A stretch of 64,000 bases of DNA from Candidatus Pacearchaeota archaeon (GTDB taxonomy: Archaea; Nanobdellota; Nanobdellia; UBA10117; JAFCGI01): the NCBI GenBank assembly GCA_017608235.1, contig JAFCGI010000001.1, forward strand, positions 74,651 through 138,650. The letters run 5' to 3'. Position 1 is the stretch's first letter. Each line of letters starts with the position of its first letter. Below are positions 21,920-44,073 of this stretch, piece after piece. Under the pieces are notes generated by a model that did no database searches, was not told the DNA's origin, and saw only the letters and a list, made by a program, of their open reading frames with translations. Made by a program: the position numbers and the translations under genes.

Positions 21920-22672
21920 ATGAAGATACGAAAAAATGATAAAGTTTTGTTAATTGGGCCTGAGAATTCAAGATTTATTGTAACTGTTGATAAAAAAGAG
22001 TTTTCTAGTAAATATGGTCAAATAAGTCTAGGTAAATTAATTGGTAGGGATTATGGATTTAAGATTAAAACTCATATTGGAAAAGGATTTATAGTATTGG
22101 AGCCTAGATTTTCTGATTTGCTAGGTAGAGCTAAGAGAGGGCCACAGGCAGTTCTGTTGAAAGATGCTATGGCTATATTAGCATATACTAGCATAGATAA
22201 GGATTCTAGTGTGGTAGATGCAGGATTAGGATCTGGATGGTTAGCTAGTTTTTTGGCAAGATACGTTAAGAAAGTGATTAGTTATGAACGAAGAAAAGAG
22301 TTTGTTAAAATCGCTAAGAAGAACATTGATTTTTTTAATATTAAAAATATTAAAGTAAAAGAAAAGGATGTATATAATGGTATTTCTGAGAAGAATTTAG
22401 ATTTGATTACTTTGGATTTGCCTGAGCCTTGGAAAGTACCAAATATTTCTAAGAATTTGAAATCTGGAGGATATATAGTAGCTTATCTGCCTACGATAAA
22501 TCAAGTTATTGAGTTTAGAAAACATCTAGAGGAAGATAAAAACTTAATGATAGAGAAAGTTATTGATATTTCTGAAGAGTATTGGATAGTTAGCAAGAAA
22601 GTAGTTAGACCAGAGTCTCAAACATTAGGACATACTGCTTTTTTAGTGTTTGTTAGAAAAATTAGTAAATAG
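21920..22672 (+). CDS. trmI: tRNA (adenine57/58-N1)-methyltransferase (start taken at ATG 21920)
   Basis: RGPQAVLLKD, VDAGLGSG, SYERR, LDLPEPW, YLP, RPE...GHTAFL. Confidence 0.92.
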   Translation: MKIRKNDKVLLIGPENSRFIVTVDKKEFSSKYGQISLGKLIGRDYGFKIKTHIGKGFIVLEPRFSDLLGRAKRGPQAVLLKDAMAILAYTSIDKDSSVVDAGLGSGWLASFLARYVKKVISYERRKEFVKIAKKNIDFFNIKNIKVKEKDVYNGISEKNLDLITLDLPEPWKVPNISKNLKSGGYIVAYLPTINQVIEFRKHLEEDKNLMIEKVIDISEEYWIVSKKVVRPESQTLGHTAFLVFVRKISK

Positions 22673-23354
22673 ATCCATTGAATTCTATTTCTTGGGATTT
22701 AAGATATAAAGAATAATTCAAATATTGTTTTGAATCTTGCTCTATTATTGTGTTGTTACAGATGATTTTTATGAATCTCTTGTTATAGAAATCTGTTAAA
22801 TGGCTACATAAATTATTTGGAAAATCTTCTTCTGCTAAGTAAGAAGTAGTTATATTTTCTGAGTTTCCTAATCCAGAGGTTCTGTATGCTGGGACTGTGG
22901 CAGATGCATAGCCATAATAAATATAATATTGTGATAGATTTCCAGTAAAACTAGCTTGGAAACTTATATTACAGGTTGGAGGGTTATCATATGAGATGTT
23001 TGAGTTTATTTCTGTATTATTTAAATCTGTAATTCTTATTTCTTTAGTACAATTTGAAATATGTGCTGCTGGCAGAGTTACTTGGATTTCTATAGGATTT
23101 ATGATTCCATTGGTTTTTGTTATGTTTGCTTGTGTTCTGTAATCCCATGAGAAGTTCCACCAATATTCATCTAACCATAGATTTCTTTCTTTTATAGAAG
23201 TTATAGCATTTTCTAGTTCTTGTGTTGAAGTATAGTGGTCTTCCACAGAAATAAAGCATATTGGTTTTATGTAACTATAGATTGTTATGAATGAGAGAGC
23301 TATCACTAAGATTGTGATTAGGAATATTTGACCTTTTTTTCCTTTTATTTTCAT
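22662..23354 (-). CDS. Class III signal-peptide (pilin-like) protein with DUF2341-like segment
   Basis: KKG|QIFLITILV; WWNFSWDYR...EIRIT...YYIYYG. Confidence 0.65.
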   Translation of the reverse strand: MKIKGKKGQIFLITILVIALSFITIYSYIKPICFISVEDHYTSTQELENAITSIKERNLWLDEYWWNFSWDYRTQANITKTNGIINPIEIQVTLPAAHISNCTKEIRITDLNNTEINSNISYDNPPTCNISFQASFTGNLSQYYIYYGYASATVPAYRTSGLGNSENITTSYLAEEDFPNNLCSHLTDFYNKRFIKIICNNTIIEQDSKQYLNYSLYLKSQEIEFNGSIY

Positions 23355-23791
23355 AGTGCACTCCAAATATATAATTTAATTGTTACAGGATCTGATGATT
23401 TTGAGTATGTGTAAAATATGCTATGTATATTTTTATTATCTAAGTCAGAAGATCCACAACTTCTTCCTATAGAATAACAAGTATCTTGATAATAATATTC
23501 TGTTTCAAACATTATTGTTTTAGGAAGTTCTTTTTGTATGTAAAGATCTATTGTTGTAAAGTTTGAGTTTGTGATATTGTTAGCAAAATTATTTTCTAAT
23601 AAGTGTTCTTTATCAAGATTATATAGTGTATTGTAGCCTATTTTTTTAAGATTCTGAGATTCTGGAATTTTATTTACATCACAAGTTATTGTAAATACAG
23701 ATGCAAATAATGCTAATAACAAGAGAATTACTAATATTTCAATTGTGTAAACATATGCTTTTTTTGTTTTTATTATATTTGTTTTTACCAT
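23351..23791 (-). CDS. Class III signal-peptide pilin-like protein
   Basis: KKA|YVYTIEIL followed by hydrophobic helix; ends LYIW. Confidence 0.7.
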   Translation of the reverse strand: MVKTNIIKTKKAYVYTIEILVILLLLALFASVFTITCDVNKIPESQNLKKIGYNTLYNLDKEHLLENNFANNITNSNFTTIDLYIQKELPKTIMFETEYYYQDTCYSIGRSCGSSDLDNKNIHSIFYTYSKSSDPVTIKLYIWSAL

Positions 23792-25443
23792 GATACTATT
23801 TCTATGTAAGCAGGAAGTGTTTCATTTTCAGTTATTATTCTGCCTTTTGTTCTTAGATTGCAGTAGCTTTGTTTTCTTGGAATAACAGCACCGATTTTTT
23901 CTCTTAACAGAGTGTTTCCTAGGTATATTGGATATTCTCTTCCTGTATTTGGGTCTTCAAAAATCATGTTTCTAATATAGTTTATTTCTGTAGCGTTTTC
24001 AACGACAATTGTGATAGAGTCATTGTCTCCTGCAGGTATATCCCAATCTAAGATTATTGTAGTTCCATTGCTAGTGTATGTGGAGGTGTTAGTATCTTGT
24101 GCTTCTAAGCTGTAGGTATAATTTACAAAAGAAGCATTTGAAAATGGGAAGAAAAGTTCTAGTTTTAGTATGGAATCATAATCTGCATTTCTTCCTGCGA
24201 TTACTGTAAGGTTTGAGTTTGATCCCTGTCTGTATAAATTTGTGGTTGGAAGTATTGGGGAGTATGGTCTGATTACTAAATTGTTGCTTGCTGCTAGTGT
24301 TCCATCAGCACCATCATTAGGAGTTACATCATAGCTCCAAGTTTCCCAGTGATCTGTCATAGAGCTATGTATTTCTGTATTATTTTTATTGTAGAGAGAT
24401 TTTATTTGATCTGCAGTTAGTGCAGTATCCCAAATTCTTACTTCATCTACTGTACCATTAAAATAAAAATTTGGACTAACTGTACACCAGTCTGCAATCA
24501 TTGTTTTTCCTGATGTAATAGATGTCCAACCAGAACCTCTAGTTGAGCTTGATTTATAATTTCCATCTATATAGAAAGTATATTTGCTGTTTGCTTCTTT
24601 ATCATACACAAGAGCTGCATGATGCCAGCCTCCACTTAGTACTCCACCACTTAAATAAAATTCAGTGGATGTGTTACCAACTCTTGCTTCAATGCTTCCT
24701 GTATTAGTTATATATATGAGATATGCGTCGTCAAAACCACTACATCCATTTATTCTGTTTTTACTAATTATTCCGCCCCATGTTCCTGCAGGTCCTAGTT
24801 TTTTGAATCTAAGTGAAACAGTAAATGAGCCTGGAATGTTTGTGCTAGAACCACTAAAGTCAATTCTATCACCATTGCCATCGAATAGATATGCACCTCC
24901 AATATATCCATTAGAAGTCCAAGAAGTATCACCAATTAAAGTACCATTATTTTGGTTTCCAGAATAATCTTTAGCAAGACTTGTTGTATTTGTGTCAAAA
25001 GGTGTGTTTAGTGCTGTTAGAGAATTTCCATTTTTTTTCCAGTTTATTATATGAGTTATGTTATCTCCATCAGGATCTGTGCTTGTAATATATGCAGTTA
25101 GGTTATCTGTTGTTAAATTATATATGGTGGTTGCATTTAGTTTTGCGGAAGTTATTTGTGCTGCTGCAAATCCGGTTAAGAGGTTTTGTTTTGATAATTG
25201 GAAGAAGGAGCTGGGAATTAAACCATCCCAGCTCTTCTCTGCGCCCAATGAGTTTGAGTTTTGATTTAGGGTTAATAATCCTTGAAGTAAAGATATAGAA
25301 TTGCTGTTTGTGTTTAGCTTGTTTTGAATGTTTATTTTTATTATGCTATCTGGAGTTAATTCAGATGCAAGAGATAAAGAATTGAGTAATATGATTAAAG
25401 TTAGGAATGCTATTACTTTTTTTGTTTCTTTTCTGATTTCCAT
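23785..25443 (-). CDS. Secreted LamG/ConA-domain protein (putative pilus adhesin)
   Basis: Signal peptide; DYSGNQNNGT, AYLFDGNGD, WHHAALVYD, FYIDG, FNGTVDEVRIWDTALT. Confidence 0.85.
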   Translation of the reverse strand: MEIRKETKKVIAFLTLIILLNSLSLASELTPDSIIKINIQNKLNTNSNSISLLQGLLTLNQNSNSLGAEKSWDGLIPSSFFQLSKQNLLTGFAAAQITSAKLNATTIYNLTTDNLTAYITSTDPDGDNITHIINWKKNGNSLTALNTPFDTNTTSLAKDYSGNQNNGTLIGDTSWTSNGYIGGAYLFDGNGDRIDFSGSSTNIPGSFTVSLRFKKLGPAGTWGGIISKNRINGCSGFDDAYLIYITNTGSIEARVGNTSTEFYLSGGVLSGGWHHAALVYDKEANSKYTFYIDGNYKSSSTRGSGWTSITSGKTMIADWCTVSPNFYFNGTVDEVRIWDTALTADQIKSLYNKNNTEIHSSMTDHWETWSYDVTPNDGADGTLAASNNLVIRPYSPILPTTNLYRQGSNSNLTVIAGRNADYDSILKLELFFPFSNASFVNYTYSLEAQDTNTSTYTSNGTTIILDWDIPAGDNDSITIVVENATEINYIRNMIFEDPNTGREYPIYLGNTLLREKIGAVIPRKQSYCNLRTKGRIITENETLPAYIEIVSW

Positions 25444-25467
25444 TGGACGCGTTTTAGTTTAAATTAG

Positions 25468-25860
25468 TTATTGTATGGTATCATTTATTCCAAATTTGAA
25501 AGCATAAACCTGATATGAGATTTGGAAGTTTCCATCTATTGGAGTAGAGTTTCTTATTTTTGGATATTTATGTTCCTGGGCTTTTTTCCATTTTTCATAA
25601 GAAATATCATAAAATTTTGAATTATTCATTAATCCAAATCTAGATAATGAAGAGGAATTTTCCCAATTGAATGGTTCTCCTTGTTCTTTAAGAATTATAG
25701 CTTCTAATGTTTCTGATTGTATACATGCTTCTTCTAGGTTTGTGCTTCTTAATTCTGAACTTAGATTTGAGATGAAAGTTATAGAGATGTAGCTGAGTAT
25801 TACTATGAAAAAGAACATTATTACTATGTATTCTATAGAGGTTTGGGCCTTTGATTTCAT
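25468..25860 (-). CDS. Class III signal-peptide pilin-like protein
   Basis: KSKA|QTSIEY (E+5), GEPFNW..GL. Confidence 0.8.
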   Translation of the reverse strand: MKSKAQTSIEYIVIMFFFIVILSYISITFISNLSSELRSTNLEEACIQSETLEAIILKEQGEPFNWENSSSLSRFGLMNNSKFYDISYEKWKKAQEHKYPKIRNSTPIDGNFQISYQVYAFKFGINDTIQ

Positions 25861-25865
25861 TTTAA

Positions 25866-27020
25866 TTATTCTGAGATTATTGATTGTACTATTGTTCGAC
25901 TATAAGTTTCATAATTTACATCAACCTGCAGAGTGAAGTTTCCATATCTTAGTGGTGTTTCAAGTATTTTCTCAAATTTACCATCAGAATCTACCTTTAG
26001 TTTATAGATTTCTTCATCTTCTTCTCCCTTTGGAAAGATAATAGTTATGTCTGCTCCTTCTGAAGGAATTGTTTCAAGATATACATCACCTTTTACTACT
26101 ATTCCTTGTTCTGGAGCTACAGTTGTTGGGGTAATATAAACATCTGCTACGAATTCTGCTGGATATATAAATAGGAAAAATACAAATAATCCTGCTGAGA
26201 GCATTATTCCAATATGTTTAATTCCTGCTTTGACACTATCTTCGGTTATTTGGCCTGAGATTAGTCCTGCACATATTCCTTGAACTAGGATCATTAGCAA
26301 GAATAGATTTTTGAAATCCATTAGAGAAGGCATTTCTCCCCCAGCCATTCCAAAAAGCATTCCTACTCCAGCAATTTGTTGTGTGAATAAAATAGGAACT
26401 AATACTCTTTGTATTGCAATTAAAACGCCAAGGAACAGAATGAAGATAATATACATCATAAACATATGTTGTTTCATTAAAGATCTTCGGTCTGCTTCTA
26501 TTTCTTTTAGAGTTCGAATTTGTTCTGCTAAAGCATTTAAAATATCTACTATGTTTCCGCCAGATATGAAAGCTTCATGAATTATATCGTTTACTCTTTT
26601 GATTAAGTTGCTTTTTCTTAATCTGTATGTAAATTTAGACCAGGCTTCTGGAAAAGGTATGCTCCAAGATAGCCAAATATTTAGTTGATGAATATATTTT
26701 GAGAGTTTTCCATAATTTGTTTTTTCTGCAGTTTTTATTGCTTGAGGCAAAGTCATACCTGCTGCTTTTGATTGAGCAAGATCTCTTATGAATTCTGGAA
26801 AAGTTTGTTCTGCAGCTTCTAATTCTTGAATTTCAAGATATCCTAAAACAGCATAAGGAGCAGCAGAAATTATTCCACCTAGTGTGATTATTAAGATTAT
26901 GAGTGTATTAGGATAGCCTGCTAAGAAAATAAATATACTTATTAATGAAATTATTACTAGTCCTGAAACTAGTATTAATGTTCTTATGTCTATATCTTCA
27001 AGTGTTTTGTTTATTTCCAT
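25866..27020 (-). CDS. Type IV pilus platform protein (T2SS-F/TadC-like) with C-terminal Ig-like extension
   Basis: FPEFIRDLA...GMT...YGKL, SGG, GLISGQI. Confidence 0.88.
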   Translation of the reverse strand: MEINKTLEDIDIRTLILVSGLVIISLISIFIFLAGYPNTLIILIITLGGIISAAPYAVLGYLEIQELEAAEQTFPEFIRDLAQSKAAGMTLPQAIKTAEKTNYGKLSKYIHQLNIWLSWSIPFPEAWSKFTYRLRKSNLIKRVNDIIHEAFISGGNIVDILNALAEQIRTLKEIEADRRSLMKQHMFMMYIIFILFLGVLIAIQRVLVPILFTQQIAGVGMLFGMAGGEMPSLMDFKNLFLLMILVQGICAGLISGQITEDSVKAGIKHIGIMLSAGLFVFFLFIYPAEFVADVYITPTTVAPEQGIVVKGDVYLETIPSEGADITIIFPKGEEDEEIYKLKVDSDGKFEKILETPLRYGNFTLQVDVNYETYSRTIVQSIISE

Positions 27021-27892
27021 GGTGAGGTTTCTTTTATTATCATTATGAATATGAATGTTATTAATGGAATACCAAGTACAACTCCTAAGTATTGCATAAA
27101 TTGTAGTTGAGATAATGGAATTCCTCCCATAGAAGACATTAATGTGCTCATTACTATTAACAATGAGGATCCTACAACTACAAAACCAATATAGATTTGC
27201 ATTATTGTTGAGAGTCTTTTACTATATTCATCAACAACTCTTCTCCTTGCAGCAATTAAACTATGTGCTTTTTCCTCAAGATATGCAGAAATATCTCCGC
27301 CAGTAGTAATTCCAGATTTTAAACCAGAAAGAATTTCTGTCCATTGTGGAGAAGGAGATCTTGCTATTGCTCTTGATAGTGCTTTTGGTAAATCTATTCC
27401 GAGAGCTTCAACATCTTTTGTTATTTTTCCTGATTCTCTTGCAATTTCTTTGTATTCTTTAAATTTTGATAATAATTTGAATGCTTCTTGCGGTGGGAAG
27501 CCAGATCTTGTGATTGTAGATAAATATATTGCAGCAAATATAAGACTATTATCTATGTCACCTCTTCTTTTTTCTGCAAGAGTTTTTGGATAGTAATATG
27601 CTGTTAAAGATGCAATAAATGCTGCGAGTATTGGAATAGTGAATGTGATTATATTGCTTGATGGTCTGAGTTCTGGAAATAATATAAACAGGTAAAAATA
27701 TACAAAAAAAGAAGCAGCTATTAATGTGATTGGAAATACAAAAATAATCATTGCAAGATATTTTTCTGGAGAAACATCTATGTTTGCTGCTTTTAGATTA
27801 TATTTTACAGTAGGAAATATTGGTTCTAATTTTCTTACTATTGGCATAAAGATTTGCGATGCATAGTAATAGATGTCTTTTTTGTTAGCCAT
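27011..27892 (-). CDS. Type IV pilus platform protein (T2SS-F/TadB-like)
   Basis: IDNSL.FA..Y, SG.PP, G.D...AL, RSPS, GGD...YL. Confidence 0.88.
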   Translation of the reverse strand: MANKKDIYYYASQIFMPIVRKLEPIFPTVKYNLKAANIDVSPEKYLAMIIFVFPITLIAASFFVYFYLFILFPELRPSSNIITFTIPILAAFIASLTAYYYPKTLAEKRRGDIDNSLIFAAIYLSTITRSGFPPQEAFKLLSKFKEYKEIARESGKITKDVEALGIDLPKALSRAIARSPSPQWTEILSGLKSGITTGGDISAYLEEKAHSLIAARRRVVDEYSKRLSTIMQIYIGFVVVGSSLLIVMSTLMSSMGGIPLSQLQFMQYLGVVLGIPLITFIFIMIIKETSPWK

Positions 27893-27896
27893 TTTA

Positions 27897-30872
27897 TTAT
27901 TGAATTGTTGTTTTAGTTTGGCGCTTATTTTTTTCTTTTGAAATTTTTATGAGTTTGAATAATTTGTTTTGGTCTATATAGTAGGTATTTATTGTTTTTG
28001 CAGCGTCTAAGAAACTATGTAATTTTTCTTCCTGCATCCATTCTATTATTTTTACTCTTTTGAGAATTTCATTTTCTATTTGTTTTTTAGTCCAACCATG
28101 TTTTTCTGCAATTTTTGCTAGATGATAGCTGTTTTTGCTTATGAATTCATCTGTAGAAGGTTTCCATTTGAATGTCTCATTAGTCTTTATTTCTTTCTTT
28201 ATACGATCATAGCCTTCTAGTTCTATTATACTTCCTACTTTTCTTGTGAAGTGGCCCATTTTTTTTGCTCTTTCAAGAAAAACTATAATATCCAAATTTT
28301 GGAGTAATGATGCTGGAAGATCTATTGGTTTTGTAGTTAGTCTGTCTATAACTGCTTCTACTGTGTCTGCATGTAATGTGGATAAGCCAGGATGGCCCGT
28401 ATTATGCAAAAGTATACCACCAAAACCTCCAATGAAATTTTGTGTTCCTGGAACACAGAGATCATATACTGATTCTTCTTTTGGCAGAGAAATATTGTTT
28501 ATTTCTTTAACGGTATCAAGATATATGTCTTTAATTGTATTTTTATCTTTTTGTTCTTTTTTGTATTTAAATGGATATTTTAATTTTGTATATTTTATGA
28601 ATTCCTCTATGTATTTTGTTTTATAGATGCAAAGATTATAAACTGGAACATTTGTTCCTTTTGTTTTTTTAATATTGCATACAATTCCAAGAGTTAATAA
28701 TAGATATGCTAAATCATTTGCTAATTCTCTTGAAGATGTCCAATAACTAATATTTTTTTTATTTATGCTTCCGTTCCCAAGCCATAGTGCTTTTAGAAAT
28801 TCTCCTATTCTTTGTTTTGAGAGTCCAAATATGAAAAAAGGAATTTTTCTATGTTTACTATTGTCTCCGCAATATTTTTTCAGAAATTCAAATAATACTT
28901 TATTACTGAAACTTAATTCCGTTGATATACCAAAACCCTTTGTTAGTCTTTCTTTTATTTTGCAATCTAATGAATAGATACATTTTTTCATATCTTTTAG
29001 AATAATTGGATTTTTATTATATAGGGCTATTCTATTATTTTTCTTTGCTTTGTTAAGACTTCCTTCTGCGATGAAATAACCTAAGAATCTTAGAAATTCG
29101 TTTGTTATTTTTAATTTTGCAGATAGTGTTTTGCTTTTTTTATCACCTTTTATTTTTAATTTATTTAAATCATATTTGATTTTTGCTAGTTTCATTAGTT
29201 CTTCGAATTTATTAGCTTTGAGTGCTGAGAAGTGTTTTCTTGCGTAACAGTCTGATATTGTTTTTAAATTAGTGATTTTGCATGCTTTTTTATAGCCTAT
29301 TTTTCTAACAGCATCTTTAATTAAACTAGGTGCTATTACTCTGAGATTTGGTAGAAGTTCTATTAAGTTTAGATGTTTTATATTTTTGAAATTGCAAGGA
29401 AGTTTAGCAGGAATTGCTATTTTATCTCCTTTTTTAAGGTTGTCTACTACTACTCCTTTTAATTCGTTATTTTCTATTGTTAAAAGTGAATGATTTATTG
29501 TAGAAATAACTTCTCTACCTGTTTTTGTTTTGATCATAATTAAATTTGATCTTGGGCTGTGACTTTGACAATCTTTTAGGTTAGCTATTGTTATTTCTCC
29601 AGGATTTTCTGAAAAAGTTGGTACTTTGTAATTTTTTGTGTCTTTAATTTGATTTATATTTTGTATTCTTGGAAAGCCTTTGTTATCAATTACGTATGTT
29701 TTTTCGTTGCCTTTAATTGATGCCATAGCCTGGAACATTACAGTTGCTTCTTTGCCTCTGACTTCTCCTACTATTATATAGTCTGGACGTTGTCTCATAG
29801 ATGCTTTTAGTAAATCAAACATGTCTACTTGCCCATAACCTTTTGCTCCAAATCCAGATCTTGCTACTTGTGGTAGCCAGTTGATTCTGGGAATTTGAAG
29901 TTCTGCTGTGTCTTCTATTGAGACTATTTTTAATCCTGGAGCTATAAACAAACATAGACTATTTAGTAAAGTTGTTTTTCCTGTTGCTGTTGATCCTGCT
30001 ATTAAGATAGATTTTTGTTCTTCTATCATTAGCCAAAGATAAGCTAGTATTAAAGGATTAAGAGTTCCGAAGTTCAGAATATCTATAGGTGTTAGTGGAA
30101 TTCTGAAGAACTTTCTGATGCTGAAGTTTGAACCCTTTCTTGCTATGTCTGTACCATATGTTAGTTGAAGTCTTGAGCCATCAGGAAGTGTTGAATCCAA
30201 AAGAGGGGTGGCAACAGAAATAGTTCTTCCAGATTTTTGGGCAAGTTTCATTACAAAAGAATCCATGTCATCCTTTTTTATGAATGATATATTTGTAGGC
30301 ATTTCTGAATATAGTGGATTTCTATGAAATATAAATACAGGAGACTTTATTCCATTGCAACTTATATCTTCTATATTTGGATCATGCATTAAAGCTTCAA
30401 CTCTACCTAAGCCAATAGTGTCTCTGAAAATATAGTATTTTGTTTTAACTATATCTTGAGGCTTTAATTTTATTCCAAGATATTCCCAGATTTCATCTAT
30501 TTTATTATCTATGTAAGTATAGACTTGTTTTTTTATTGCTAAGCTGCTAAAATCTATTTCAAGTCTTTCTTTTAATAATTCGGAAGTTTTGTCTATGATT
30601 TTTCTTAATCTTATATCTATTTTAGGTTCGAGTACTTCATAGATGATATCATTTAATTGCTTATTATAATGTATGTAAGCGAATGCTACAGGGATTACTT
30701 TTTTACCTATTTTTATTTTAATTAAGGGGTAGGTTTCTGAGATGGATTTTATTTTTTTAGAAATATCATCTTTTGCTTCTAGTTCTAGAGCTTTTTTTGT
30801 AGGTAAGCTTATTCTGAATTCTTGGTTTTTTTGTGAATTTGATTTAGCTGTAGCTATATTGGGCGCAGTCAT
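27897..30872 (-). CDS. Type IV pilus assembly ATPase (VirB11/ArlI-like) containing an intein
   Basis: DPNIEDISC, Walker A GSTATGKTT, SIEDTAE, RQRPDYIIVGEVRG, TGH..STLHA. Confidence 0.95.
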   Translation of the reverse strand: MTAPNIATAKSNSQKNQEFRISLPTKKALELEAKDDISKKIKSISETYPLIKIKIGKKVIPVAFAYIHYNKQLNDIIYEVLEPKIDIRLRKIIDKTSELLKERLEIDFSSLAIKKQVYTYIDNKIDEIWEYLGIKLKPQDIVKTKYYIFRDTIGLGRVEALMHDPNIEDISCNGIKSPVFIFHRNPLYSEMPTNISFIKKDDMDSFVMKLAQKSGRTISVATPLLDSTLPDGSRLQLTYGTDIARKGSNFSIRKFFRIPLTPIDILNFGTLNPLILAYLWLMIEEQKSILIAGSTATGKTTLLNSLCLFIAPGLKIVSIEDTAELQIPRINWLPQVARSGFGAKGYGQVDMFDLLKASMRQRPDYIIVGEVRGKEATVMFQAMASIKGNEKTYVIDNKGFPRIQNINQIKDTKNYKVPTFSENPGEITIANLKDCQSHSPRSNLIMIKTKTGREVISTINHSLLTIENNELKGVVVDNLKKGDKIAIPAKLPCNFKNIKHLNLIELLPNLRVIAPSLIKDAVRKIGYKKACKITNLKTISDCYARKHFSALKANKFEELMKLAKIKYDLNKLKIKGDKKSKTLSAKLKITNEFLRFLGYFIAEGSLNKAKKNNRIALYNKNPIILKDMKKCIYSLDCKIKERLTKGFGISTELSFSNKVLFEFLKKYCGDNSKHRKIPFFIFGLSKQRIGEFLKALWLGNGSINKKNISYWTSSRELANDLAYLLLTLGIVCNIKKTKGTNVPVYNLCIYKTKYIEEFIKYTKLKYPFKYKKEQKDKNTIKDIYLDTVKEINNISLPKEESVYDLCVPGTQNFIGGFGGILLHNTGHPGLSTLHADTVEAVIDRLTTKPIDLPASLLQNLDIIVFLERAKKMGHFTRKVGSIIELEGYDRIKKEIKTNETFKWKPSTDEFISKNSYHLAKIAEKHGWTKKQIENEILKRVKIIEWMQEEKLHSFLDAAKTINTYYIDQNKLFKLIKISKEKNKRQTKTTIQ
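28401..29720 (-). mobile_element. 440-aa intein with LAGLIDADG endonuclease domain
   Basis: Interrupts FQAMA|TGH. Starts SIKGNE, block B STINHSL, LAGLIDADG motifs FLGYFIAEG and FLKALWLGNG, block F VYDLCV, ends LHN followed by Thr. Confidence 0.95.
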
Positions 30873-30947: not shown

Positions 30948-31373
30948 CTAAGATAGAATGATTTTATCTTTTTCAGGAGAATATTCTAGTGAGATTTTTT
31001 GATTTTCTGAAAATGCTAATCCTTGAGTGCTTTTATTCCAGGTTTTTATGTTATGTATTTTGGAGATTGCTTGTGTTCCTCGAATGTCTATTTTAGTTTT
31101 GTTTCCTAATAAGGAAATTTCATAAGAGTCTTTTCCAATTTCTGCTGGAATTGGTTTTGAGATTTTTATATAACCATATTCTGAGAATATTTTTAAATTT
31201 TCTATAGAGTTTTCTAGGTTTTGATTTTCTAGAGAAATTATTTGTTCTCCTGATTTTTCTATAACATTTTTTTCTATTCCTTCATAAGAGATTATTATTA
31301 GTGCAAGTACTGTAATACTTATTATGGAAGAGATTATTAGAAAAAAAGCACTAAAAGCAGTTTTAGATTTCAT
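30948..31373 (-). CDS. Pilin-like protein (class III-like signal)
   Basis: MKSKTA|FSAFF followed by hydrophobic helix; IPAEIG..SY.I. Confidence 0.6.
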   Translation of the reverse strand: MKSKTAFSAFFLIISSIISITVLALIIISYEGIEKNVIEKSGEQIISLENQNLENSIENLKIFSEYGYIKISKPIPAEIGKDSYEISLLGNKTKIDIRGTQAISKIHNIKTWNKSTQGLAFSENQKISLEYSPEKDKIILS

Positions 31374-31893
31374 AGGATTTGACCTCTATTATTTGATAGA
31401 TTGTTTCTGAACATGGAGAGGTGGTTATGTTTTCTTGTTTGTATGAGAGATATATATTATTATAGGTGTTTTTTGATAGAGATAAAGTGTTTTTTAATTG
31501 AATACCATAGCAATTATCTGCTGTAGGATCTTTATATTCTAGGACAACCCTATTAGAGTTTGAACCTATTTTAGATAGGCTATCTTGATAAAAATTAGCA
31601 TAATTAGATTGGGAATTTCGCTTTATGAATTCTATTTTATTTGTGGTGATGATAAGATCTTCATCATCTTCTAGAAAGAATTCATAAGGACCTTTTTTAC
31701 TTTGTTCGCGGGCAGAGTCTTGTATAAGCTGATTTATTTCGTGAAAGTTTAATTCGACTGTATTAAGTCTTTTTTTATCTTGGCTTTCTTTTAGTGTGGT
31801 TCTTGCAAACACTAAAGATATTGTAAGTATGGATATTATCATAATTAATACTAAAAGATATGAGATCATTGCTTGGGCTTTTTTTTTAGCCAT
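31363..31893 (-). CDS. Archaeal-type pilin-like protein
   Basis: KKKA|QAMISYLL followed by hydrophobic helix. Confidence 0.75.
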   Translation of the reverse strand: MAKKKAQAMISYLLVLIMIISILTISLVFARTTLKESQDKKRLNTVELNFHEINQLIQDSAREQSKKGPYEFFLEDDEDLIITTNKIEFIKRNSQSNYANFYQDSLSKIGSNSNRVVLEYKDPTADNCYGIQLKNTLSLSKNTYNNIYLSYKQENITTSPCSETIYQIIEVKSYEI

Positions 31894-31943: not shown

Positions 31944-32483
31944 TTAGAGTTCTATTGAGGATATTATTTGACCAAATCCGCAAGGAGTATCAAAATAAAT
32001 ATTATAATTTATACTTCCTGATTCTGCGGTTAGAGAACAAGCACTCCCACTTAAATTAAATTTTAATTCTATAGCATTATTAAATGAGGTATTACAACCA
32101 GTTGTACAATCTATGTCACCAGAGACCCCGTTTACAGGCTCATTAAAACATATATCCCAATTATCTAAATAACGTCCGTTTTCGGTTTGTATACTAAAAT
32201 AAGTATCATTATCATTGCTTTCATAAATTGTTTCAGCTGTAGATCTTAGATTTGTTAGTTGGACTGTTAGCACATCTGTGGTGCTATTATATGTATTTCC
32301 TGAAACTAGAAATTTTGAGCACATTCTTGATTGACCTTCTTCATTTATTGTGGATTCTAGTTCTGCTACACTTTCTTTTCCGTATTCTAGAACAACTCTT
32401 GTACCTAGTATAGTTATGAGTAAACTTATGGTTAAGACTGCTAGCATTTCTATTATTGTAAATGCTTTTTTGGAATTAATCAT
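31944..32483 (-). CDS. Pilin with bacterial-type FTxxE N-terminus
   Basis: KKA|FTIIEMLAVL; Cys-rich head. Confidence 0.8.
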   Translation of the reverse strand: MINSKKAFTIIEMLAVLTISLLITILGTRVVLEYGKESVAELESTINEEGQSRMCSKFLVSGNTYNSTTDVLTVQLTNLRSTAETIYESNDNDTYFSIQTENGRYLDNWDICFNEPVNGVSGDIDCTTGCNTSFNNAIELKFNLSGSACSLTAESGSINYNIYFDTPCGFGQIISSIEL

Positions 32484-32556
32484 ATTATTATTTTAGAAAT
32501 TGTTGATATATATTTGTTTTGATATTAGATAAAAGAAAAAGAAAAAATGCATGGGA

Positions 32557-33069
32557 TTATGCTGCATTTGTTATTGCGTTACTTGTTGCATAATTACCAA
32601 GGTTATTTTTATCACATACAACGTCATTACTATCTTGAGCTGCAGTTAATACTACTTTTGTTACATTGTCGCTAAATGTTAAGTCCCATATACCATCATT
32701 ATATGATACACCACCTTGTATCCATACAGATCCATTATATCCTCTTGCGGCACCGCTTCCATTTAATATTGTATATTGTCTAAGTGGACATCCAGAGCTA
32801 GAATCTATTCTCCAACTAGTGTTTACTGTGGTAATACTTACGGTGTTTTGATATTGACCATTTTCACAATTCATTACTGCTGTTGAAAAACCTGAGGACC
32901 AGCTATAACAGCTAGCTGCTTGCGTACCTTGATTTTCAGTTAGTATTAATTGGTCTGGTACAGACTCTAATGCTCCTCTTAAAAAAGTTATAGCTATACT
33001 ACTTAATACTGCTATAATAGTCATAACTACTACTAATTCCATTAATGTAAATGCTTTTTTATTTACCAT
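32557..33069 (-). CDS. Pilin with bacterial-type FTxxE N-terminus; candidate major pilin
   Basis: KKA|FTLMELVVVMTIIAVL; strong GGAGG RBS upstream and T-rich tract downstream. Confidence 0.85.
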   Translation of the reverse strand: MVNKKAFTLMELVVVMTIIAVLSSIAITFLRGALESVPDQLILTENQGTQAASCYSWSSGFSTAVMNCENGQYQNTVSITTVNTSWRIDSSSGCPLRQYTILNGSGAARGYNGSVWIQGGVSYNDGIWDLTFSDNVTKVVLTAAQDSNDVVCDKNNLGNYATSNAITNAA

Positions 33070-33150
33070 TTTTCCTCCTTATTTTTATATAATTCTTAGT
33101 TTAGTATTGAGTAGTTGCTTATTATTTATATATATTTCTCTAGGATTAAA

Positions 33151-33645
33151 CTATACTACTCTTGCTGGAATTTGTCTATATGTATATGTTTCGCATCCAG
33201 ATAGTGTTAGATATAACCATGATGCTTTTTCTTGTGCACATCCAGGTACTTCTGCACTAGTATTTCCTATACAAGCTACTATAGACCCTGTGGCATTCTT
33301 ACATGTTAGATTGGAAGTACATATACTATATTCTGTGCTGCTAGAATTTTTAAGATAATCTATTTCTACAGCATAAGGTTCAGTTAATAATTCAAGACCG
33401 TCTTTAATGGATGGTATAGTGAATGTATAATTATTTGATGTTTCATTATAGGAAACATTAATATTTTCTATATCTTTCATTATTTCTTCAGTATTTTCAT
33501 AGCAATCTGTCTGGTTTGTGGATTTGTCAAGGGTTGTTCGTCCAAATGTTATTACTAATGTATATAGAGTAGCTATTATTATAGTAGTGATTACTAATTC
33601 AATTATTGTAAACGCTTTTTTATTATTCTTTTCTTTTAATTTCAT
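33151..33645 (-). CDS. Pilin with bacterial-type FTxxE N-terminus (start taken at internal ATG 33645)
   Basis: KKA|FTIIELVITTIIIA. Confidence 0.8.
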   Translation of the reverse strand: MKLKEKNNKKAFTIIELVITTIIIATLYTLVITFGRTTLDKSTNQTDCYENTEEIMKDIENINVSYNETSNNYTFTIPSIKDGLELLTEPYAVEIDYLKNSSSTEYSICTSNLTCKNATGSIVACIGNTSAEVPGCAQEKASWLYLTLSGCETYTYRQIPARVV

Positions 33646-33649
33646 ATGG

Positions 33650-34168
33650 CTAAAATGTAAATTTGAATACATCAATTTCTTCTCCACAACCTTCTATAAG
33701 TAATAATATTTGTGATGCTTGGTTTCCTCCACATATATTTGTACCATTTATAGTACCTATTTTTCCAGGAGTACATTCAGTAGATCCACATCTAAGGGTT
33801 GCATATTCTTTAATATTATTTTGACATGTTACAATAACATCATTTATTTCATTAGATAGTCTGAAATCTCCTGCTTGAGAATCTGAATAAGGATGTAGTC
33901 CACAACTATTATAATTTGGGATATCGTTAGTGGTATAGATTTTTGTAGAACTGTTATAAGTTATGTTAAGTGCTGGACAGCCTGAGAAGTCTGGAGCTTC
34001 ATTATAAATAATTAGTTGAGCATAATCAAATATACATCCTTGTTGGTTTTTATGTTCTCTAATAGCACCTATTACTTGTGGTGCTGCAGTTGCTATTATT
34101 GTAAATGCAATTGTGATTGCTACCATTAATTCAACTATGAATGATGCTTTTTTGTTTAGGTGCGCCAT
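33650..34168 (-). CDS. Pilin-like protein with E+5
   Basis: KKA|SFIVELMVAI; Cys-rich head. Confidence 0.75.
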   Translation of the reverse strand: MAHLNKKASFIVELMVAITIAFTIIATAAPQVIGAIREHKNQQGCIFDYAQLIIYNEAPDFSGCPALNITYNSSTKIYTTNDIPNYNSCGLHPYSDSQAGDFRLSNEINDVIVTCQNNIKEYATLRCGSTECTPGKIGTINGTNICGGNQASQILLLIEGCGEEIDVFKFTF

Positions 34169-34228: not shown

Positions 34229-34663
34229 TTATGAAGGCATTGGTGCTGATGCTGGAAAGCTTATTTTGGAAGGCATTATTAAAACATTAAAGTAAGTTCC
34301 AGTGCAACCACCAGGAATTGTTGTAGAAATAACACATGAAAATGCTGTGCAAATTTGTTCGCTGTTGACATTTGAAGTACATACAATATCTTCATTTTGA
34401 TCAAGTATTTGTACTTCTGATTCTGTAGATATTTTTAGAGTAGGAGCAAATTTTATAAATTCAATACTGAGAGTGTTTCCAATTAAAACCGCACCTTCAT
34501 ATTGTATTCCAGCCATGCTTTGAGCATTATCGCCTATATTTTCATATATTCTTTGAGGATTTTCTCTGAACCAAGGAAGAGATATTGAGATACCAAGCAA
34601 GATTATAATTACTACTATTACGAATGATATATAGTTTGCTAGGGCTTTTGAGTTGTTTTTCAT
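34229..34663 (-). CDS. Pilin-like protein
   Basis: NSKA|LANYISFV followed by hydrophobic helix. Confidence 0.65.
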   Translation of the reverse strand: MKNNSKALANYISFVIVVIIILLGISISLPWFRENPQRIYENIGDNAQSMAGIQYEGAVLIGNTLSIEFIKFAPTLKISTESEVQILDQNEDIVCTSNVNSEQICTAFSCVISTTIPGGCTGTYFNVLIMPSKISFPASAPMPS

Positions 34664-34668
34664 TTTAT

Positions 34669-35181
34669 TTAACGACACCAAAATGGACAGTGAGATCCTC
34701 CATATGCATAAGGTAACCTATAAGTATAATTTGTATTTAGGGGACAATTGGTGAGATTAATTAATCCATTATTTGCGCAATCTGTGCAACTTGCTGTACA
34801 ATATTCTTTAGTTCCATCTGACTTATATACAGTAACTGTGCCACCGTCTTGGATTCTTAATGTAGAGGGTAAAGGATAAGAATCATTTGGCATGTTAAAA
34901 TAACCATCAGAGCAAGTTTCTCCAGTATCTAATATCCAGTTTCTAAATTGTTTTTGTTCATTTGTACATGTTGCAAAATATTGTTGAGTAAGTGGAGGTG
35001 TTATTGTATTTAGTGCAGTGTTTCCTGCAGTAGGAGCTGTTGGATTATATATTCCATTAGTAGTAGCTTTAGTTTTTTCTATAATATCTTCTTTGTATGT
35101 ACGCTCAACAATAGTAGTGCTAGCTAATACAATTAATATTAATACTAAAATAGAGATTATGTTTGATATAGCTTTTTTCAT
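34669..35181 (-). CDS. Archaeal-type pilin-like protein
   Basis: MKKA|ISNIISIL; paralogue of 35237-35719. Confidence 0.75.
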   Translation of the reverse strand: MKKAISNIISILVLILIVLASTTIVERTYKEDIIEKTKATTNGIYNPTAPTAGNTALNTITPPLTQQYFATCTNEQKQFRNWILDTGETCSDGYFNMPNDSYPLPSTLRIQDGGTVTVYKSDGTKEYCTASCTDCANNGLINLTNCPLNTNYTYRLPYAYGGSHCPFWCR

Positions 35182-35236
35182 TGTTTTATATTTTATAATT
35201 AGCTTTTGAATTATTTATTTCTTTTTATTATTATAT

Positions 35237-35719
35237 TTAACATGTGAATTTGCAGGTAGCTTCATTGCCTTCGTAAGTAACTTTATATTTTATAGTGTAA
35301 ATTAGTGAGTTTGCAAGACTGCAGTTAGAGAGATTTAATAAACCATTGTTTCCGCAATCACTACAAGTTACTATGCAGGTTTCAAAAGTCTTATCTGGAT
35401 ATTTAACTATAGTATCACTATTGTTTATAACTTCTCCAGATAAGTATGTGAAGGTTGCAGGAGGCATGTTGAAAGATCCATCATTACATTTTTCATTGTA
35501 TTTTAATTGGTAATCATGAATTGCTGTTATGTCATGAATACAGAGTTCTTTTGCTTTGGTGCTGGGAAATAATGTATCTAAAACTTCTTTGTGTTTTATA
35601 GATGTGTCTGATGCAAACATATCTATGTTTTCTTTATAGTTATTGTAGAGAATTGCTAAGCTTGAAAGTGCTATTAATATTATTATGCTCATAGAAATTA
35701 GATGTGAGGCTTTTTTCAT
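35237..35719 (-). CDS. Pilin-like protein
   Basis: MKKA|SHLISM; shares C.DG.FNMP and C.DC.NNGL.NL.NC with the neighbouring gene. Confidence 0.7.
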   Translation of the reverse strand: MKKASHLISMSIIILIALSSLAILYNNYKENIDMFASDTSIKHKEVLDTLFPSTKAKELCIHDITAIHDYQLKYNEKCNDGSFNMPPATFTYLSGEVINNSDTIVKYPDKTFETCIVTCSDCGNNGLLNLSNCSLANSLIYTIKYKVTYEGNEATCKFTC

Positions 35720-35737
35720 TATGAATCATATGTATTG

Positions 35738-36214
35738 TTAGGCTATAAAGCTTACTGGTACAGAATGTATGTTATTTGGTTGGAAGATTATTTGGGCAGA
35801 TATTTCTCCAAGATTAGTTAGATTGCATACTGGGATTGTAAATTCGTTGAAAGAGTTTTCTTGAATAATTATTTCACCAGTGGTATTACATATTTCTATT
35901 ATACATTCTGTTCTTGTTGTGCTGATATCTTTTAGTATAAGAAGAGATTCTGGATCATAGTTTCTACAAGCAAATAATTTTGTAGTACCTTTATTTTCAG
36001 CTTTAATAGTAAGATTTAATACTGAGGAATCATAAGAAGGATTTGATAATATAATATTGGTTTCTACTTGGGCAAATACATTATCTGCTTGATCTTTGCT
36101 TATGGATGTGAGTTTGTCTCTTTCTATAGCATACCAAACAGAAACTATTGAAAGTAAGAAAACAGTTAATAAAATAATTAAAGAAAGAGAAAGAGTCTGG
36201 GTTGCTTTCATCAC
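35738..36214 (-). CDS. Pilin-like protein
   Basis: MMKA|TQTLSL followed by hydrophobic helix; ENKGTT. Confidence 0.65.
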   Translation of the reverse strand: MMKATQTLSLSLIILLTVFLLSIVSVWYAIERDKLTSISKDQADNVFAQVETNIILSNPSYDSSVLNLTIKAENKGTTKLFACRNYDPESLLILKDISTTRTECIIEICNTTGEIIIQENSFNEFTIPVCNLTNLGEISAQIIFQPNNIHSVPVSFIA

Positions 36215-36714
36215 TCAGATGTTAGATAGAATAGATATCCATCTATATTTGTTGGTTTGAATGTTAATAGTATTTTTGTGTTTACTCCAGATGACACTGC
36301 ATTTATGCTACAGTTTAGATCTCCACTTGCATTAAGTCCACAGCAAGGAAGCGAAATTTCTAGTTTTTCTCCTGAAAGTGCACCATTATGACTAAAATGG
36401 CCATCACAATATACTTGGTCGCCTTCTATTGATACTACTTGGTATGTACTGGCGTTAGAGGAGTCAGCTTTTATTGTTGTAGTGCCTACATTTTTGAAAG
36501 TGATATTTATTGGGTTTACTCCATCTTGAGCTATAACTCTTAATGAGCCAGCTAATGCTTGAGATACTTGTATGTCTGTAGCCTGTGATTGGGCAGCACT
36601 TGTTTTTTCTTGAGATGATTTCCAACTTACTCCTGCTGCTGCTGCAATACCTAAAACTATTAATACTAACATTAATCCGCCTACTAAGTTTGATTGTGCT
36701 TTTTTACTTATCAT
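36211..36714 (-). CDS. Archaeal-type pilin
   Basis: KKA|QSNLVGGLML; NPINITFKNVG, CDGHF. Confidence 0.8.
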   Translation of the reverse strand: MISKKAQSNLVGGLMLVLIVLGIAAAAGVSWKSSQEKTSAAQSQATDIQVSQALAGSLRVIAQDGVNPINITFKNVGTTTIKADSSNASTYQVVSIEGDQVYCDGHFSHNGALSGEKLEISLPCCGLNASGDLNCSINAVSSGVNTKILLTFKPTNIDGYLFYLTSE

Positions 36715-36771
36715 TTTTAATCCTCTTTTTGTTTAAATTAGGAATTGTTCCTTTTTTTATGTTATTTAGTA

Positions 36772-37272
36772 TTATCTGGTGAGGAATATTGATAGAGGAT
36801 ACTTTATTTCTTTTAGTGCTATATAGTCTCCTTGATGAAATCCAAGAATTATGATTACTGTATTATTTACTTGAGAATCTCTGTAAGATGTTAGATCACA
36901 GTCAGAGATTAGTATTGTACCTTTTTGCTGTTTTGGAATTTCTGGGGAATTAAAGTGTCCATCGCATATTTTTTTTTCAGATTCTTGTTTTATGAAGTAT
37001 GTGCTGGATGAGTTTTTAATTTTGATATCTCCTTGATTAAGTATTGTTATATTAATAGGATTTCCTGCGGTTCCTATTCCTGTGATACTTAGTGTTTCAA
37101 GATTGTGAGAAAGATATCCAGCAACTTTTTGATCCACTAGCTGAGTGCCTGCTGCAGTCAAGTCATCTACAGAGTTTTTTTGAGTATCATTAAAAAATAC
37201 AAATATGGAAATCATGATTAAAGTTATGGCTAGAAATCCTAGTGTGTTTGCTGCAGCTTTTTTTGATTTCAT
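36772..37272 (-). CDS. Archaeal-type pilin-like protein
   Basis: KKA|AANTLG; NPINITILNQG, CDGHF (paralogue of 36211-36714). Confidence 0.75.
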   Translation of the reverse strand: MKSKKAAANTLGFLAITLIMISIFVFFNDTQKNSVDDLTAAGTQLVDQKVAGYLSHNLETLSITGIGTAGNPINITILNQGDIKIKNSSSTYFIKQESEKKICDGHFNSPEIPKQQKGTILISDCDLTSYRDSQVNNTVIIILGFHQGDYIALKEIKYPLSIFLTR

Positions 37273-37306: not shown

Positions 37307-37879
37307 TTATGTTGCGTAAGCTATAAACATTGCTGTTGCTTCTACACCATCAGGTTCAAAAGTGGTTTCTACTGTTATTCTCTTATTTATGTTGTTATTT
37401 AGTCCTTCATAACAAGTGGTGTTTGTTAGATTTAGTTTAATTCTTCTAGAATCATGTCCTGGAAGATCTTCACTACAACCTTCATTACATTCTATATAGC
37501 TATTTGATCCATCTCCACACCATTTAACTGCTGAACAAATTGGATCTAAATCTTCATCTAGAATATTTGTACGCGTTGTTGAAATTCCTTCTGCACATAT
37601 GTCTCTAATTTCTCTTAGAGTTGTTCTACCATTATTAACAACTGTGAATTCCATTCCCCCAGAATCATTATCATATACTACATTTTCTATAGTTATTGCT
37701 TTTCCATATTTAGCAGTTTGTGCATCTACTTGTTCAGTACCTGCTGCCTGAAGTCCAGAACTCATTTTTGAGAACCAGATGAATGCTGCTCCAGCAGAAG
37801 CTACAGCTAACATTAGTAATAATAAAACCGCTAAAATTGGAGAGATACCTTTCTTTGATAAAAATAAGTTGCCTTTCAT
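37307..37879 (-). CDS. Archaeal pilin/archaellin-type N-terminus protein; candidate major pilin
   Basis: KKG|ISPILAVLLLLMLAVASAG...W; first gene of the array, followed by a T-rich tract. Confidence 0.85.
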   Translation of the reverse strand: MKGNLFLSKKGISPILAVLLLLMLAVASAGAAFIWFSKMSSGLQAAGTEQVDAQTAKYGKAITIENVVYDNDSGGMEFTVVNNGRTTLREIRDICAEGISTTRTNILDEDLDPICSAVKWCGDGSNSYIECNEGCSEDLPGHDSRRIKLNLTNTTCYEGLNNNINKRITVETTFEPDGVEATAMFIAYAT

Positions 37880-37948: not shown

Positions 37949-38455
37949 TTAACGATATTGATAGAGATTTAGGAATGATTTTAATTCATTATAGAAGTCC
38001 CAGCCTTCTTTCCAAAGTTCTCCTTTTAGTTGTTCTAGTGTAGATTTATAGAGATATTTATCATAAAAACCTTTTAAGAATTTAAAGAAAGGGCTTTTTT
38101 CCCAAGCATCTTCATAATCAGTTACTATATAAGCAGTTATGAATATATTTATTTCACCTTGATTCATTTTTATGTCTTGGCCTGCCTGCTGTACTTTGAC
38201 GTCATTAATTCCAAAGAGCTGCCATTTAACTTTAATTACAAATCTAGAATATTCATCTATGTCGCGTATAGCTTCCCATTTGATTTCAAATTCTTTGCCT
38301 TGAGGTTTTACTTTTTCTGTATATTTAGCTTCATATACATCATATTTGTACCATTCAAGCCAATTATGAGCATGCTTATATACTTCATCAAAATCAAAGA
38401 TTATATTTTTAACTTGGATTCTTTGATCGGTAAGTAATTCAATCTTTTCAGACAT
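37949..38455 (-). CDS. Hypothetical protein
   Basis: Long ORF with natural composition; no recognised motif. Confidence 0.7.
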   Translation of the reverse strand: MSEKIELLTDQRIQVKNIIFDFDEVYKHAHNWLEWYKYDVYEAKYTEKVKPQGKEFEIKWEAIRDIDEYSRFVIKVKWQLFGINDVKVQQAGQDIKMNQGEINIFITAYIVTDYEDAWEKSPFFKFLKGFYDKYLYKSTLEQLKGELWKEGWDFYNELKSFLNLYQYR

Positions 38456-43701: not shown

Positions 43702-44073
43702 ATGGATAAGGTAGTAGTTGGTTTAATTGAAGAGATAGAAATTAGTGGTAGAAATAAGAAGAAGATTTTAGCTAAATTTGATACTGGTGCTACAAGGAGC
43801 GCTGTGGATTTTGAATTAGCATCTGAACTGGAATTAGGACCTGTTGTTGGAAAGACTATTGTTAGAACAAATCATGGTGTGGGTAAGAGAGCAATAGTTA
43901 GGGCTATGCTTAATATATGCGGCAAAGAAATTGAGGCTAATGTTTCTTTATCAGATAGAGAGAAAAATAAATATAAACTGTTAATTGGTAGGGATGTTAT
44001 CCATTCTAATTTTATTATAGATCCAAGCAAGAGTAATTCAAATTTAAAAGAAAGCAGCATATTAGAAAAATGA
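43702..44073 (+). CDS. Retropepsin-like aspartic protease (RimB/RimK-associated type)
   Basis: VGLIE, AKFDTGATRS, L.DR...Y.LLIGRD, F.IDP. Confidence 0.88.
   Translation: MDKVVVGLIEEIEISGRNKKKILAKFDTGATRSAVDFELASELELGPVVGKTIVRTNHGVGKRAIVRAMLNICGKEIEANVSLSDREKNKYKLLIGRDVIHSNFIIDPSKSNSNLKESSILEK

Follow-up and report, generated by a model that had tools for sequence, protein, structure and literature searches.

Four Glu5-bearing pilin genes as likely accessory pilins of an archaeal type IV filament in a Pacearchaeota genome

We analyzed a 64,000-nucleotide stretch of DNA (the window; pilin genes are named here by their start coordinates within it) from contig JAFCGI010000001.1 of a Candidatus Pacearchaeota archaeon (assembly GCA_017608235.1), with a focus on four adjacent pilin genes within a type IV filament locus that spans 15 kb on a single strand. 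The window is archaeal, encoding a thermosome, an archaeal CCA-adding enzyme, NFACT, and SMC/ScpAB at a GC content of ~0.30. The locus has 13 pilin genes between 30948 and 37879, all with K-K-A/G-type leaders, and the four genes in question are the following, with a slash at the predicted cleavage site:

31944-32483, minus strand: Glu5 pilin 1, open reading frame (ORF) of 179 amino acids (aa), MINSKKA/FTIIEMLAVL
32557-33069, minus strand: Glu5 pilin 2, ORF of 170 aa, MVNKKA/FTLMELVVVMTIIAVL
33151-33645, minus strand: Glu5 pilin 3, 164 aa from the probable start ATG 33645, MKLKEKNNKKA/FTIIELV (the ORF, 33151-33687, is open from GTG 33687)
33650-34168, minus strand: Glu5 pilin 4, ORF of 172 aa, MAHLNKKA/SFIVELM

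A first-pass annotation of the window had described three adjacent KKA/FTxxE genes plus one reading SFIVELM, flanked by pilins with ISP or QS starts. We found all four ORFs on the minus strand as described, and the flanking genes begin with KKG/ISP (37307), KKA/QSN (36211), and KKA/QAM (31363). Assuming cleavage after K-K-A as predicted, Glu is at +5 in all four (31944, 32557, 33151, and 33650), and the +1 residue is Phe in three, including 32557, which reads FTLMELV after KKA, and Ser in 33650. Each has Ala at -1 and Lys at -2, not the Gly at -1 of the N_methyl/TIGR02532 class, which is described as near-invariant in bacterial prepilins (PMC4471445). The leader rule given for archaea is a charged residue at -2 followed by Gly, Ala, or Ser at -1 (PMC4371748), and the four conform to it, with approximately 20 hydrophobic residues after the leader and an archaeal ATPase and platform in the same locus. 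They are on the same strand as these FlaI-like ATPase and ArlJ-like platform genes, separated by short gaps, and their GC and GC3 (0.13 to 0.16) equal the genome's.

The four N-termini had been interpreted as the bacterial N-methyl-Phe plus Glu5 motif. This interpretation held insofar as bacterial models matched, but not in full, as Glu5 is not purely bacterial (see below) and the leader is archaeal in style. Pfam N_methyl (PF07963; gathering score, 21.2 bits) matched 31944, 32557, and 33151 with 17.8, 28.5, and 18.2 bits, respectively, placing one of the four over the gathering score. TIGR02532 (cut-off, 16.3 bits) gave 16.3 (equal to the cut-off), 29.3, and 13.9 bits (under it) for the same three by hmmscan, and 19.2, 32.1, and 16.7 bits in a six-frame search of the whole genome. 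Thus, two genes by hmmscan and three by the six-frame search were at or over the TIGR02532 cut-off, and 33650 was matched by neither model. The three six-frame matches were the only ones over the cut-off in the genome, every one in the pilus locus. The best of the four against bacterial N-terminal models was 32557, and none of them matched the archaeal N-terminal model TIGR02537.

When back-translated, the pattern [KR][GA]F[TS]hhE (h, hydrophobic) occurred three times in the 1.2-Mb genome, always in the pilus locus, and once in the reversed control, indicating that the motif is more than a chance occurrence. In a genome-wide scan of 107 class-III-like N-termini, the form with KKA, an aromatic residue or Ser, and Glu5 was likewise confined to the pilus locus. 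The N-terminal 44 aa of 33151 and 32557 are 48% identical, which indicates an N-terminal module common to the four. The other pilin genes of the cluster are listed below:

30948-31893, minus strand: conserved minor pilins beside the ATPase gene (31363-31893, KKA/QAMISY; and 30948-31373)
34229-37272, minus strand: six further lineage-specific pilins (34229, 34669, 35237, 35738, 36211, and 36772) with K-[KS]-A leaders, none with Glu5
37307-37879, minus strand: orthologue of the order's major pilin, KKG/ISPILAVLLLL (TIGR02537, 30.7 bits; relatives' hidden Markov model [HMM], E 1.1e-32)

We compared the cluster with order- and class-level relatives in a sample of 41 genomes, this genome included in this and the following counts over 41. 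Orthologues of the first platform gene were present in 36 of the 41, and the region upstream of it was compared in 20 syntenic stretches. The relatives' gene order is a thermosome gene, 1 to 3 major pilins reading K[GA]/[IL]TPIIAV, a ~200-aa pilin reading K[GA]/QAQIVGF, a ~145-aa pilin, and the ATPase, sometimes with a large pilin between the major pilins and the K[GA]/QAQIVGF pilin. The conserved gene 31363 matched the relatives' u_QAQ family HMM (E 1.4e-15), with relatives having genes at the same position, and the heads of 36211, 35738, and 36772 were weakly related to the major-pilin family by the relatives' HMM. There are 1 to 6 class III genes at the syntenic position in relatives versus 13 here. 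None of the N-termini listed in the 20 loci combined Phe1 with Glu5, the single E5 flag among them being an effect of the chosen cleavage site. No relative exceeded the TIGR02532 cut-off, and the full FTxxE form was found in 0 of the 40 order-level relatives; at E ≤ 0.05, 2 of the 41 genomes were matched, namely, this genome and one relative (15.1 bits). The low gene numbers and the lack of Phe1/Glu5 N-termini and of TIGR02532 matches over the cut-off in relatives indicate that the four genes, as well as the six pilins at 34229-37272, are additions in this lineage.

The head of 31944 was related to the archaeal major pilins. Against an HMM built from 26 relatives' major pilins only, this head alone scored 30.5 bits, compared with a maximum of 11.1 bits over 500 head shuffles, and the full protein scored 29.4 bits (E 6e-10; E-values for a database of 16 sequences). 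In hhalign, 31944 matched the major-pilin alignment made without it (probability, 96.3; E 1.7e-9) over residues 49-165 only; the N-helix, the part best conserved in the major-pilin family, was left out. The pattern C..GC....[IK].NL....C, which the first-pass annotation had seen to be shared by 31944 and 37307, is indeed common to both and is kept across the relatives' major-pilin family, the Asn and Cys columns being conserved between this family and the 31944 head. An AF2 model of 31944 (pLDDT 72.9), for which archaeal major pilins supplied the alignment and which therefore leans archaeal, has one long helix and seven strands with an all-beta head. Its nearest Foldseek matches were archaeal FlaG/FlaF, archaellins, and Sulfolobus, Haloferax, and Pyrobaculum pilins (E 2e-3 to 4e-2). 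A homologue search with the 31944 head alone returned only the query itself.

The homology of this head to archaeal major pilins, together with the unaligned N-helix, marks 31944 as a mosaic of a bacterial-like N-helix and an archaeal major-pilin-family head rather than a transferred bacterial gene. This fits the suggestion of the first-pass annotation that the N-terminus was swapped or converged.

The other three heads are diverse. A homologue search with 32557 found none but itself among 78 candidates, and its head is not related to that of the major pilins. In a PDB sequence search, 32557 matched bacterial pilin N-termini only, with a nonsignificant best E of 0.0034, and its single-sequence AF2 model was unusable (pLDDT 43.1). 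The match of 33151 to a minor-pilin family of the relatives (m2, described below; 16.4 bits) was barely over the maximum of 500 head shuffles (15.3 bits) and was not relied on. The gene 33650 encodes an orphan head with 8 Cys. The heads of the four are Cys-rich and bear N-X-S/T sequons.

These results bear on the alternative of a whole-gene insertion, in which the four derive from a bacterial cassette of four minor-pilin or pseudopilin genes (GspH-K, FimU/PilVWX, or ComGD-G type) that has since been ameliorated. A bacterial N-terminal signature in four adjacent genes, weak N-terminal matches to the ComGC, ComGD, GspG, and GspH models, and the closest ESM Atlas clusters, which have N_methyl (scores of 0.80 to 0.84, taken at lead level only), would be expected from such an insertion, and 6 of the 10 other genomes of the phylum with TIGR02532 matches (400 others sampled) carry a candidate G/F[TS]xxE prepilin N-terminus, so that genes of this kind are present in the phylum. 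However, the bacterial pilin family models matched N-terminal stretches only, at 10 to 19 bits versus cut-offs of 49 to 169, and those for minor pilins and pseudopilins (GspH-K and ComGD-G) gave no match over the head domain of any of the four. The head of 31944 is that of an archaeal major pilin, the four share Ala at -1 and Lys at -2 with the rest of the locus in place of Gly at -1, and their GC3 is the host's. We consider this alternative improbable. A recent transfer, considered for the four genes and for the PilD N-domain gene described below, was rejected because the GC3 of both matches the genome.

The G/F[TS]xxE genes in the six other phylum genomes (L011, L012, L013, L016, L017, and L019) are single, and some have leaders of approximately 50 to 70 aa. 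Two of these stretches have GC contents of 0.41 and 0.56, well above the group, and may represent contamination or recent transfer. In the wider stretches around the six (L071-L076), no tandem Glu5 pilins were seen from N-termini only, with no family scan; one of these stretches is near other pilin-like genes.

Downstream of the pilin cluster, the locus encodes the filament machinery and further pilin-like proteins:

27897-30872, minus strand: archaeal type IV filament (T4F) assembly ATPase, 991 aa, with a LAGLIDADG intein (T2SSE, Intein_splicing, LAGLIDADG_3)
25866-27892, minus strand: split platform of two T2SSF genes, matching the N- and C-terminal halves of ArlJ/FlaJ
25468-25860, minus strand: conserved pilin-like protein, KSKA/QTSIEY (E5-Y6; relatives' family HMM, E 1e-32)
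23785-25443, minus strand: Laminin_G_3/TafC-like protein, putative adhesin (TafC, 28.9 bits)
23351-23791, minus strand: conserved pilin-like protein, KKA/YVYTIEIL (E6; relatives' family HMM, E 4e-32)
22662-23366, minus strand: conserved pilin-like protein, KKG/QIFLIT (relatives' family HMM, E 3e-29)

The best NCBIfam match of the ATPase is archaeal FlaI (405 bits, under the 550-bit equivalog cut-off). One ATPase with two platform genes, as present here, corresponds to the archaeal "system 1" of a 2026 census, which is Epd-like and reported to be common in DPANN (PMC13705601), and no T2SSF platform gene was found by Pfam outside this locus in the genome. A single Peptidase_A24 gene is encoded on a contig other than that of the pilus locus. 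Its product is not fused to a PilD N-domain, matches FlaK_Arch as well as Peptidase_A24, has a weak archaeal C-terminal domain, and resembles the FlaK/PibD type; orthologues were found in 38 of the 41 genomes.

The intein of the ATPase has a LAGLIDADG homing-endonuclease domain at approximately residues 395-824, and the relatives' ATPases, at 553 to 594 aa, appear to be intein-free. Outside the window on the same contig (C19:181758-195360), we observed a second T2SSE-type ATPase (50.8 bits, 758-aa frame), with several KKA/QIS...-type pilin genes approximately 7 to 14 kb after it.

In 12 stretches downstream of the relatives' platform genes, we found two types of minor pilins bearing an acidic residue near the N-terminus. 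The first, m1, a protein of 270 to 360 aa reading [GA]/xxxxE[YF], was found in 8 of the 12 loci; its regular expression required the acidic residue, and hence the count stands as 8 of 12 loci, not 8 of 8. The second, m2, was also present in 8 of the 12; it has ~150 aa, reads G/[YFL]x[YF]x[IV]E[IL], and combines an aromatic +1 residue with Glu at +6. Therefore, a Glu near the N-terminus is native to this archaeal system. Even at E 10, however, TIGR02532 did not match any of 19 native Glu-bearing proteins, 3 of them the window's own and 16 the relatives', which sets the full FTxxE form apart from the native ones.

The window's own [GA]/xxxxE[YF] minor pilin, the E5-Y6 protein listed above, has 130 aa versus 270 to 360 aa in relatives, and 24 bases after it lies the 552-aa Laminin_G_3/TafC-like protein with its own signal-like N-terminus (23785-25860, minus strand, for both). 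Either a split of the ancestral gene or a replacement of its head may explain this arrangement.

There are at least 16 pilin-like genes in the locus versus one recognizable platform pair in the genome. This disproportion would also suit a different role for the four, which could build a second fibre with the same ATPase or, without forming a filament, be helix-anchored surface proteins with class III signals, like a bindosome. The first-pass annotation had likewise raised either a hybrid filament or two types of filament from one ATPase. The diverse, Cys-rich heads of the four, with N-X-S/T sequons, are as expected of exposed binding modules, and archaeal T4F bases serving several pilin sets have been discussed (PMC13705601). 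The sequences do not separate either version from a minor-pilin role. However, for a fibre of their own, the four are more unlike each other than would suit a major shaft subunit, and none is duplicated as the relatives' major pilins are. We regard such a role as unlikely, though less so than the insertion of a bacterial cassette.

The Phe1/Glu5 N-termini raise the question of methylation. The first-pass annotation had stated that archaeal prepilin peptidases are not known to N-methylate, in agreement with reviews (PMC4371748, PMC4471445), which describe the methylation domain as absent from archaeal peptidases and report neither a methylated archaeal pilin nor an archaeal pilin methyltransferase. 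It had also proposed a genome search for a PilD with a methylase domain. We found no fused PilD, i.e., an N-domain joined to Peptidase_A24, in this search, but did find a stand-alone gene elsewhere in the genome, encoding a 111-aa protein that matches A24_N_bact, the PilD N-domain, with 109.9 bits. This protein has two hydrophobic, predicted transmembrane (TM) segments flanking CPVC...GKCRNC, and the ORF ends after the second segment, followed by an LSm gene. The four Cys and the Gly-Lys before the third Cys are intact. In PilD, the four Cys bind zinc, on which methylation but not cleavage depends, and in the Pseudomonas enzyme the Gly and basic residue that precede the third Cys have a part in methylation (PMC3584216). 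Our literature search on this domain (A24_N_bact, PF06750, IPR010627, DiS_P_DiS) found nothing on archaea among the papers listed, as judged by titles and the first lines of abstracts, subscription journals being mostly uncovered.

The A24_N_bact gene is not near the pilus locus. Its neighbors are archaeal (LSm, L37e, S8e, and TFB), and it occupies a variable slot between LSm/L37e and the divergently arranged S8e gene, a slot that in 19 relatives is empty or filled with unrelated genes of 100 to 260 aa. Its GC3 matches the genome, with no sign of foreign composition. S8e has a single match in this genome and is 45 to 65% identical to the relatives' copies; given this and the archaeal neighbors, contamination is an unlikely source of the contig. 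In a library of 1.8 billion proteins, the nearest relatives of the 111-aa protein were 45 to 57% identical N-domains of PilD-length proteins, along with short entries, some of which are probably fragments; the related-loci search in genome contigs with this protein found no relative.

The domain is rare. At E ≤ 1e-3, A24_N_bact was found in 3 of the 41 order- and class-level genomes, and the two matches other than this gene were the Zn-ribbon end of a different protein and a match under the cut-off with two TGA stops. In the phylum sample, 3 of 401 genomes, including this one, had a match. If the two features were independent, the chance that a genome picked for its pilins also holds this gene would be approximately 2 in 400. 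However, no FTxxE pilin was found in the two other phylum genomes with A24_N_bact, and no A24_N_bact match was found in the 10 other phylum genomes with TIGR02532 matches, so that a functional link rests on one genome.

The A24_N-like proteins of the two other phylum genomes (L009:1483-1788, minus strand; L010:1501-1674, plus strand) are divergent, reading CENC...[KR]CC with the third Cys shifted (56 and 43 bits), and the L010 copy is without the first TM segment and the start codon.

These findings allow the tentative proposal that PilD is split in this archaeon, with the archaeal peptidase cleaving the prepilins and the stand-alone 111-aa protein N-methylating the Phe1/Glu5 pilins in trans. 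The bacterial-like N-terminal module and the PilD N-domain gene would then have been acquired or co-opted together, rebuilding the two activities of PilD. Such a split would account for a rare domain with an intact CxxC...CxxC and Gly-Lys (110 bits, two predicted TM segments) in a slot that relatives leave empty or fill otherwise, for closest relatives that are N-domains of PilD-length proteins, and for the Glu5 of the pilins, which is reported to be important for methylation in bacterial pili (PMC4471445). On the other hand, the link is a co-occurrence in a single genome and not among the other carriers of either feature, the gene is far from the pilus locus and not foreign in composition, and the N-domain alone is not known to be catalytic in any organism; according to a review, its catalytic role "remains to be formally demonstrated" (PMC4471445). 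We consider the split possible, more so than the second-fibre or surface-protein roles, but would not expect it; it is compatible with an accessory-pilin role of the four.

Taken together, we favor, with a probability of roughly 0.6, that the four genes encode accessory (minor) pilins specific to this lineage, which belong to the archaeal type IV filament and arose within the operon by expansion and mosaic evolution. The core machine, with its FlaI-like ATPase, ArlJ-like platform halves, and FlaK_Arch/Peptidase_A24 peptidase, is archaeal, which supports this reading. Each prepilin would be built in layers, i.e., an archaeal leader (Lys -2, Ala -1), a bacterial-like alpha1-N helix (Phe/Ser1...Glu5), and, as resolved in 31944 only, a putative beta-sandwich head of the archaeal major-pilin family. 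The single archaeal A24 peptidase is predicted to cut after K-K-A, and the intein-bearing ATPase and split platform may then insert the subunits into the filament of ISP-type major pilins. Glu5 probably neutralizes the N-terminal amine of a neighboring subunit by a salt bridge, as in bacterial filaments, in which case the four could form a small Glu5-linked subcomplex with a priming, tip, or adhesin-bearing role, and not the shaft of the filament. The origin of the helix could lie in the native Glu-bearing minor pilins or in recombination with a bacterial sequence, and a stretch of approximately 25 residues is too short to decide between the two.

Several points weigh against the accessory-pilin reading. 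The heads of 32557, 33151, and 33650 had no detectable relatives in homologue, profile, and PDB sequence searches, and archaeal origin is thus shown for one gene only. In that gene, 31944, the model gave no Foldseek match with E ≤ 1e-3 against solved structures. The N-helix matches bacterial models that match 0 of the 19 native Glu-bearing proteins, and the N-terminal module may have a bacterial source. Four adjacent Glu5 pilins also resemble the bacterial four-gene minor-pilin sets, and the processing and assembly steps outlined above are predicted from the genes.

The gene at 37949-38455 (minus strand), which separates the thermosome gene from the pilin cluster, encodes a 168-aa protein that belongs to no Pfam family, and the thermosome gene lies within a few hundred bases of the first pilin gene in at least 6 of the relatives' loci. 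Farther along the window (43702-46252, plus strand) is a cluster of three genes encoding a small Zn_protease-like/retropepsin-like protein, a RimK ATP-grasp ligase, and a MATCAP-like carboxypeptidase (E 2e-49), which may represent a pair of enzymes adding and trimming peptide tails in an archaeon.

With a stand-alone methylation domain and four candidate substrates in one genome, methylation of archaeal pilins becomes testable, and the natural separation of the domain from the peptidase offers a clean system for asking whether the domain alone methylates. If true, the split PilD would be the first archaeal pilin methylation system and would show that the N-domain alone carries methyltransferase activity. 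A second question is what Phe1 and Glu5 contribute when an archaeal machine assembles the filament. The locus further illustrates mosaic evolution of pilin genes within a single operon, with leader, helix, and head as the pieces, in a small-genome host that probably depends on surface contacts.

Among known systems, the Epd pili of Methanococcus maripaludis (system 1, EppA-processed) are likewise archaeal, with two platform genes, many minor pilins, and Glu at +5 (PMC3875500, PMC13705601). However, all of the pilin-like proteins studied there have Gln at +1, together with the conserved Glu at +5 (PMC3875500), and EppA requires this Gln, whereas the four have Phe or Ser at +1 and, in three of them, an N-helix matched by the N_methyl/TIGR02532 models. 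The peptidase here is FlaK/PibD-like, and Gln at +1, absent from the four, is found in several further pilins of the locus. The m1 and m2 minor pilins of the order share the operon and the leaders of the four and likewise carry an acidic residue, at +5 or +6, and m2 has an aromatic +1. In contrast to the Glu5 pilins, these native proteins do not match TIGR02532 (0 of 19), and only 33151 is marginally related to m2. With bacterial type IVa pilins and pseudopilins, the four share F-T-hydrophobic-hydrophobic-E-L/M followed by a hydrophobic helix, with scores of up to 29 bits, but they differ in having Ala instead of Gly at -1, archaeal machinery, and, in the one resolved case, an archaeal head. 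As in bacterial PilD systems, the genome encodes a canonical PilD N-domain; unlike in the bifunctional PilD, this methylation-type domain is the product of a separate 111-aa gene, unfused to the peptidase.

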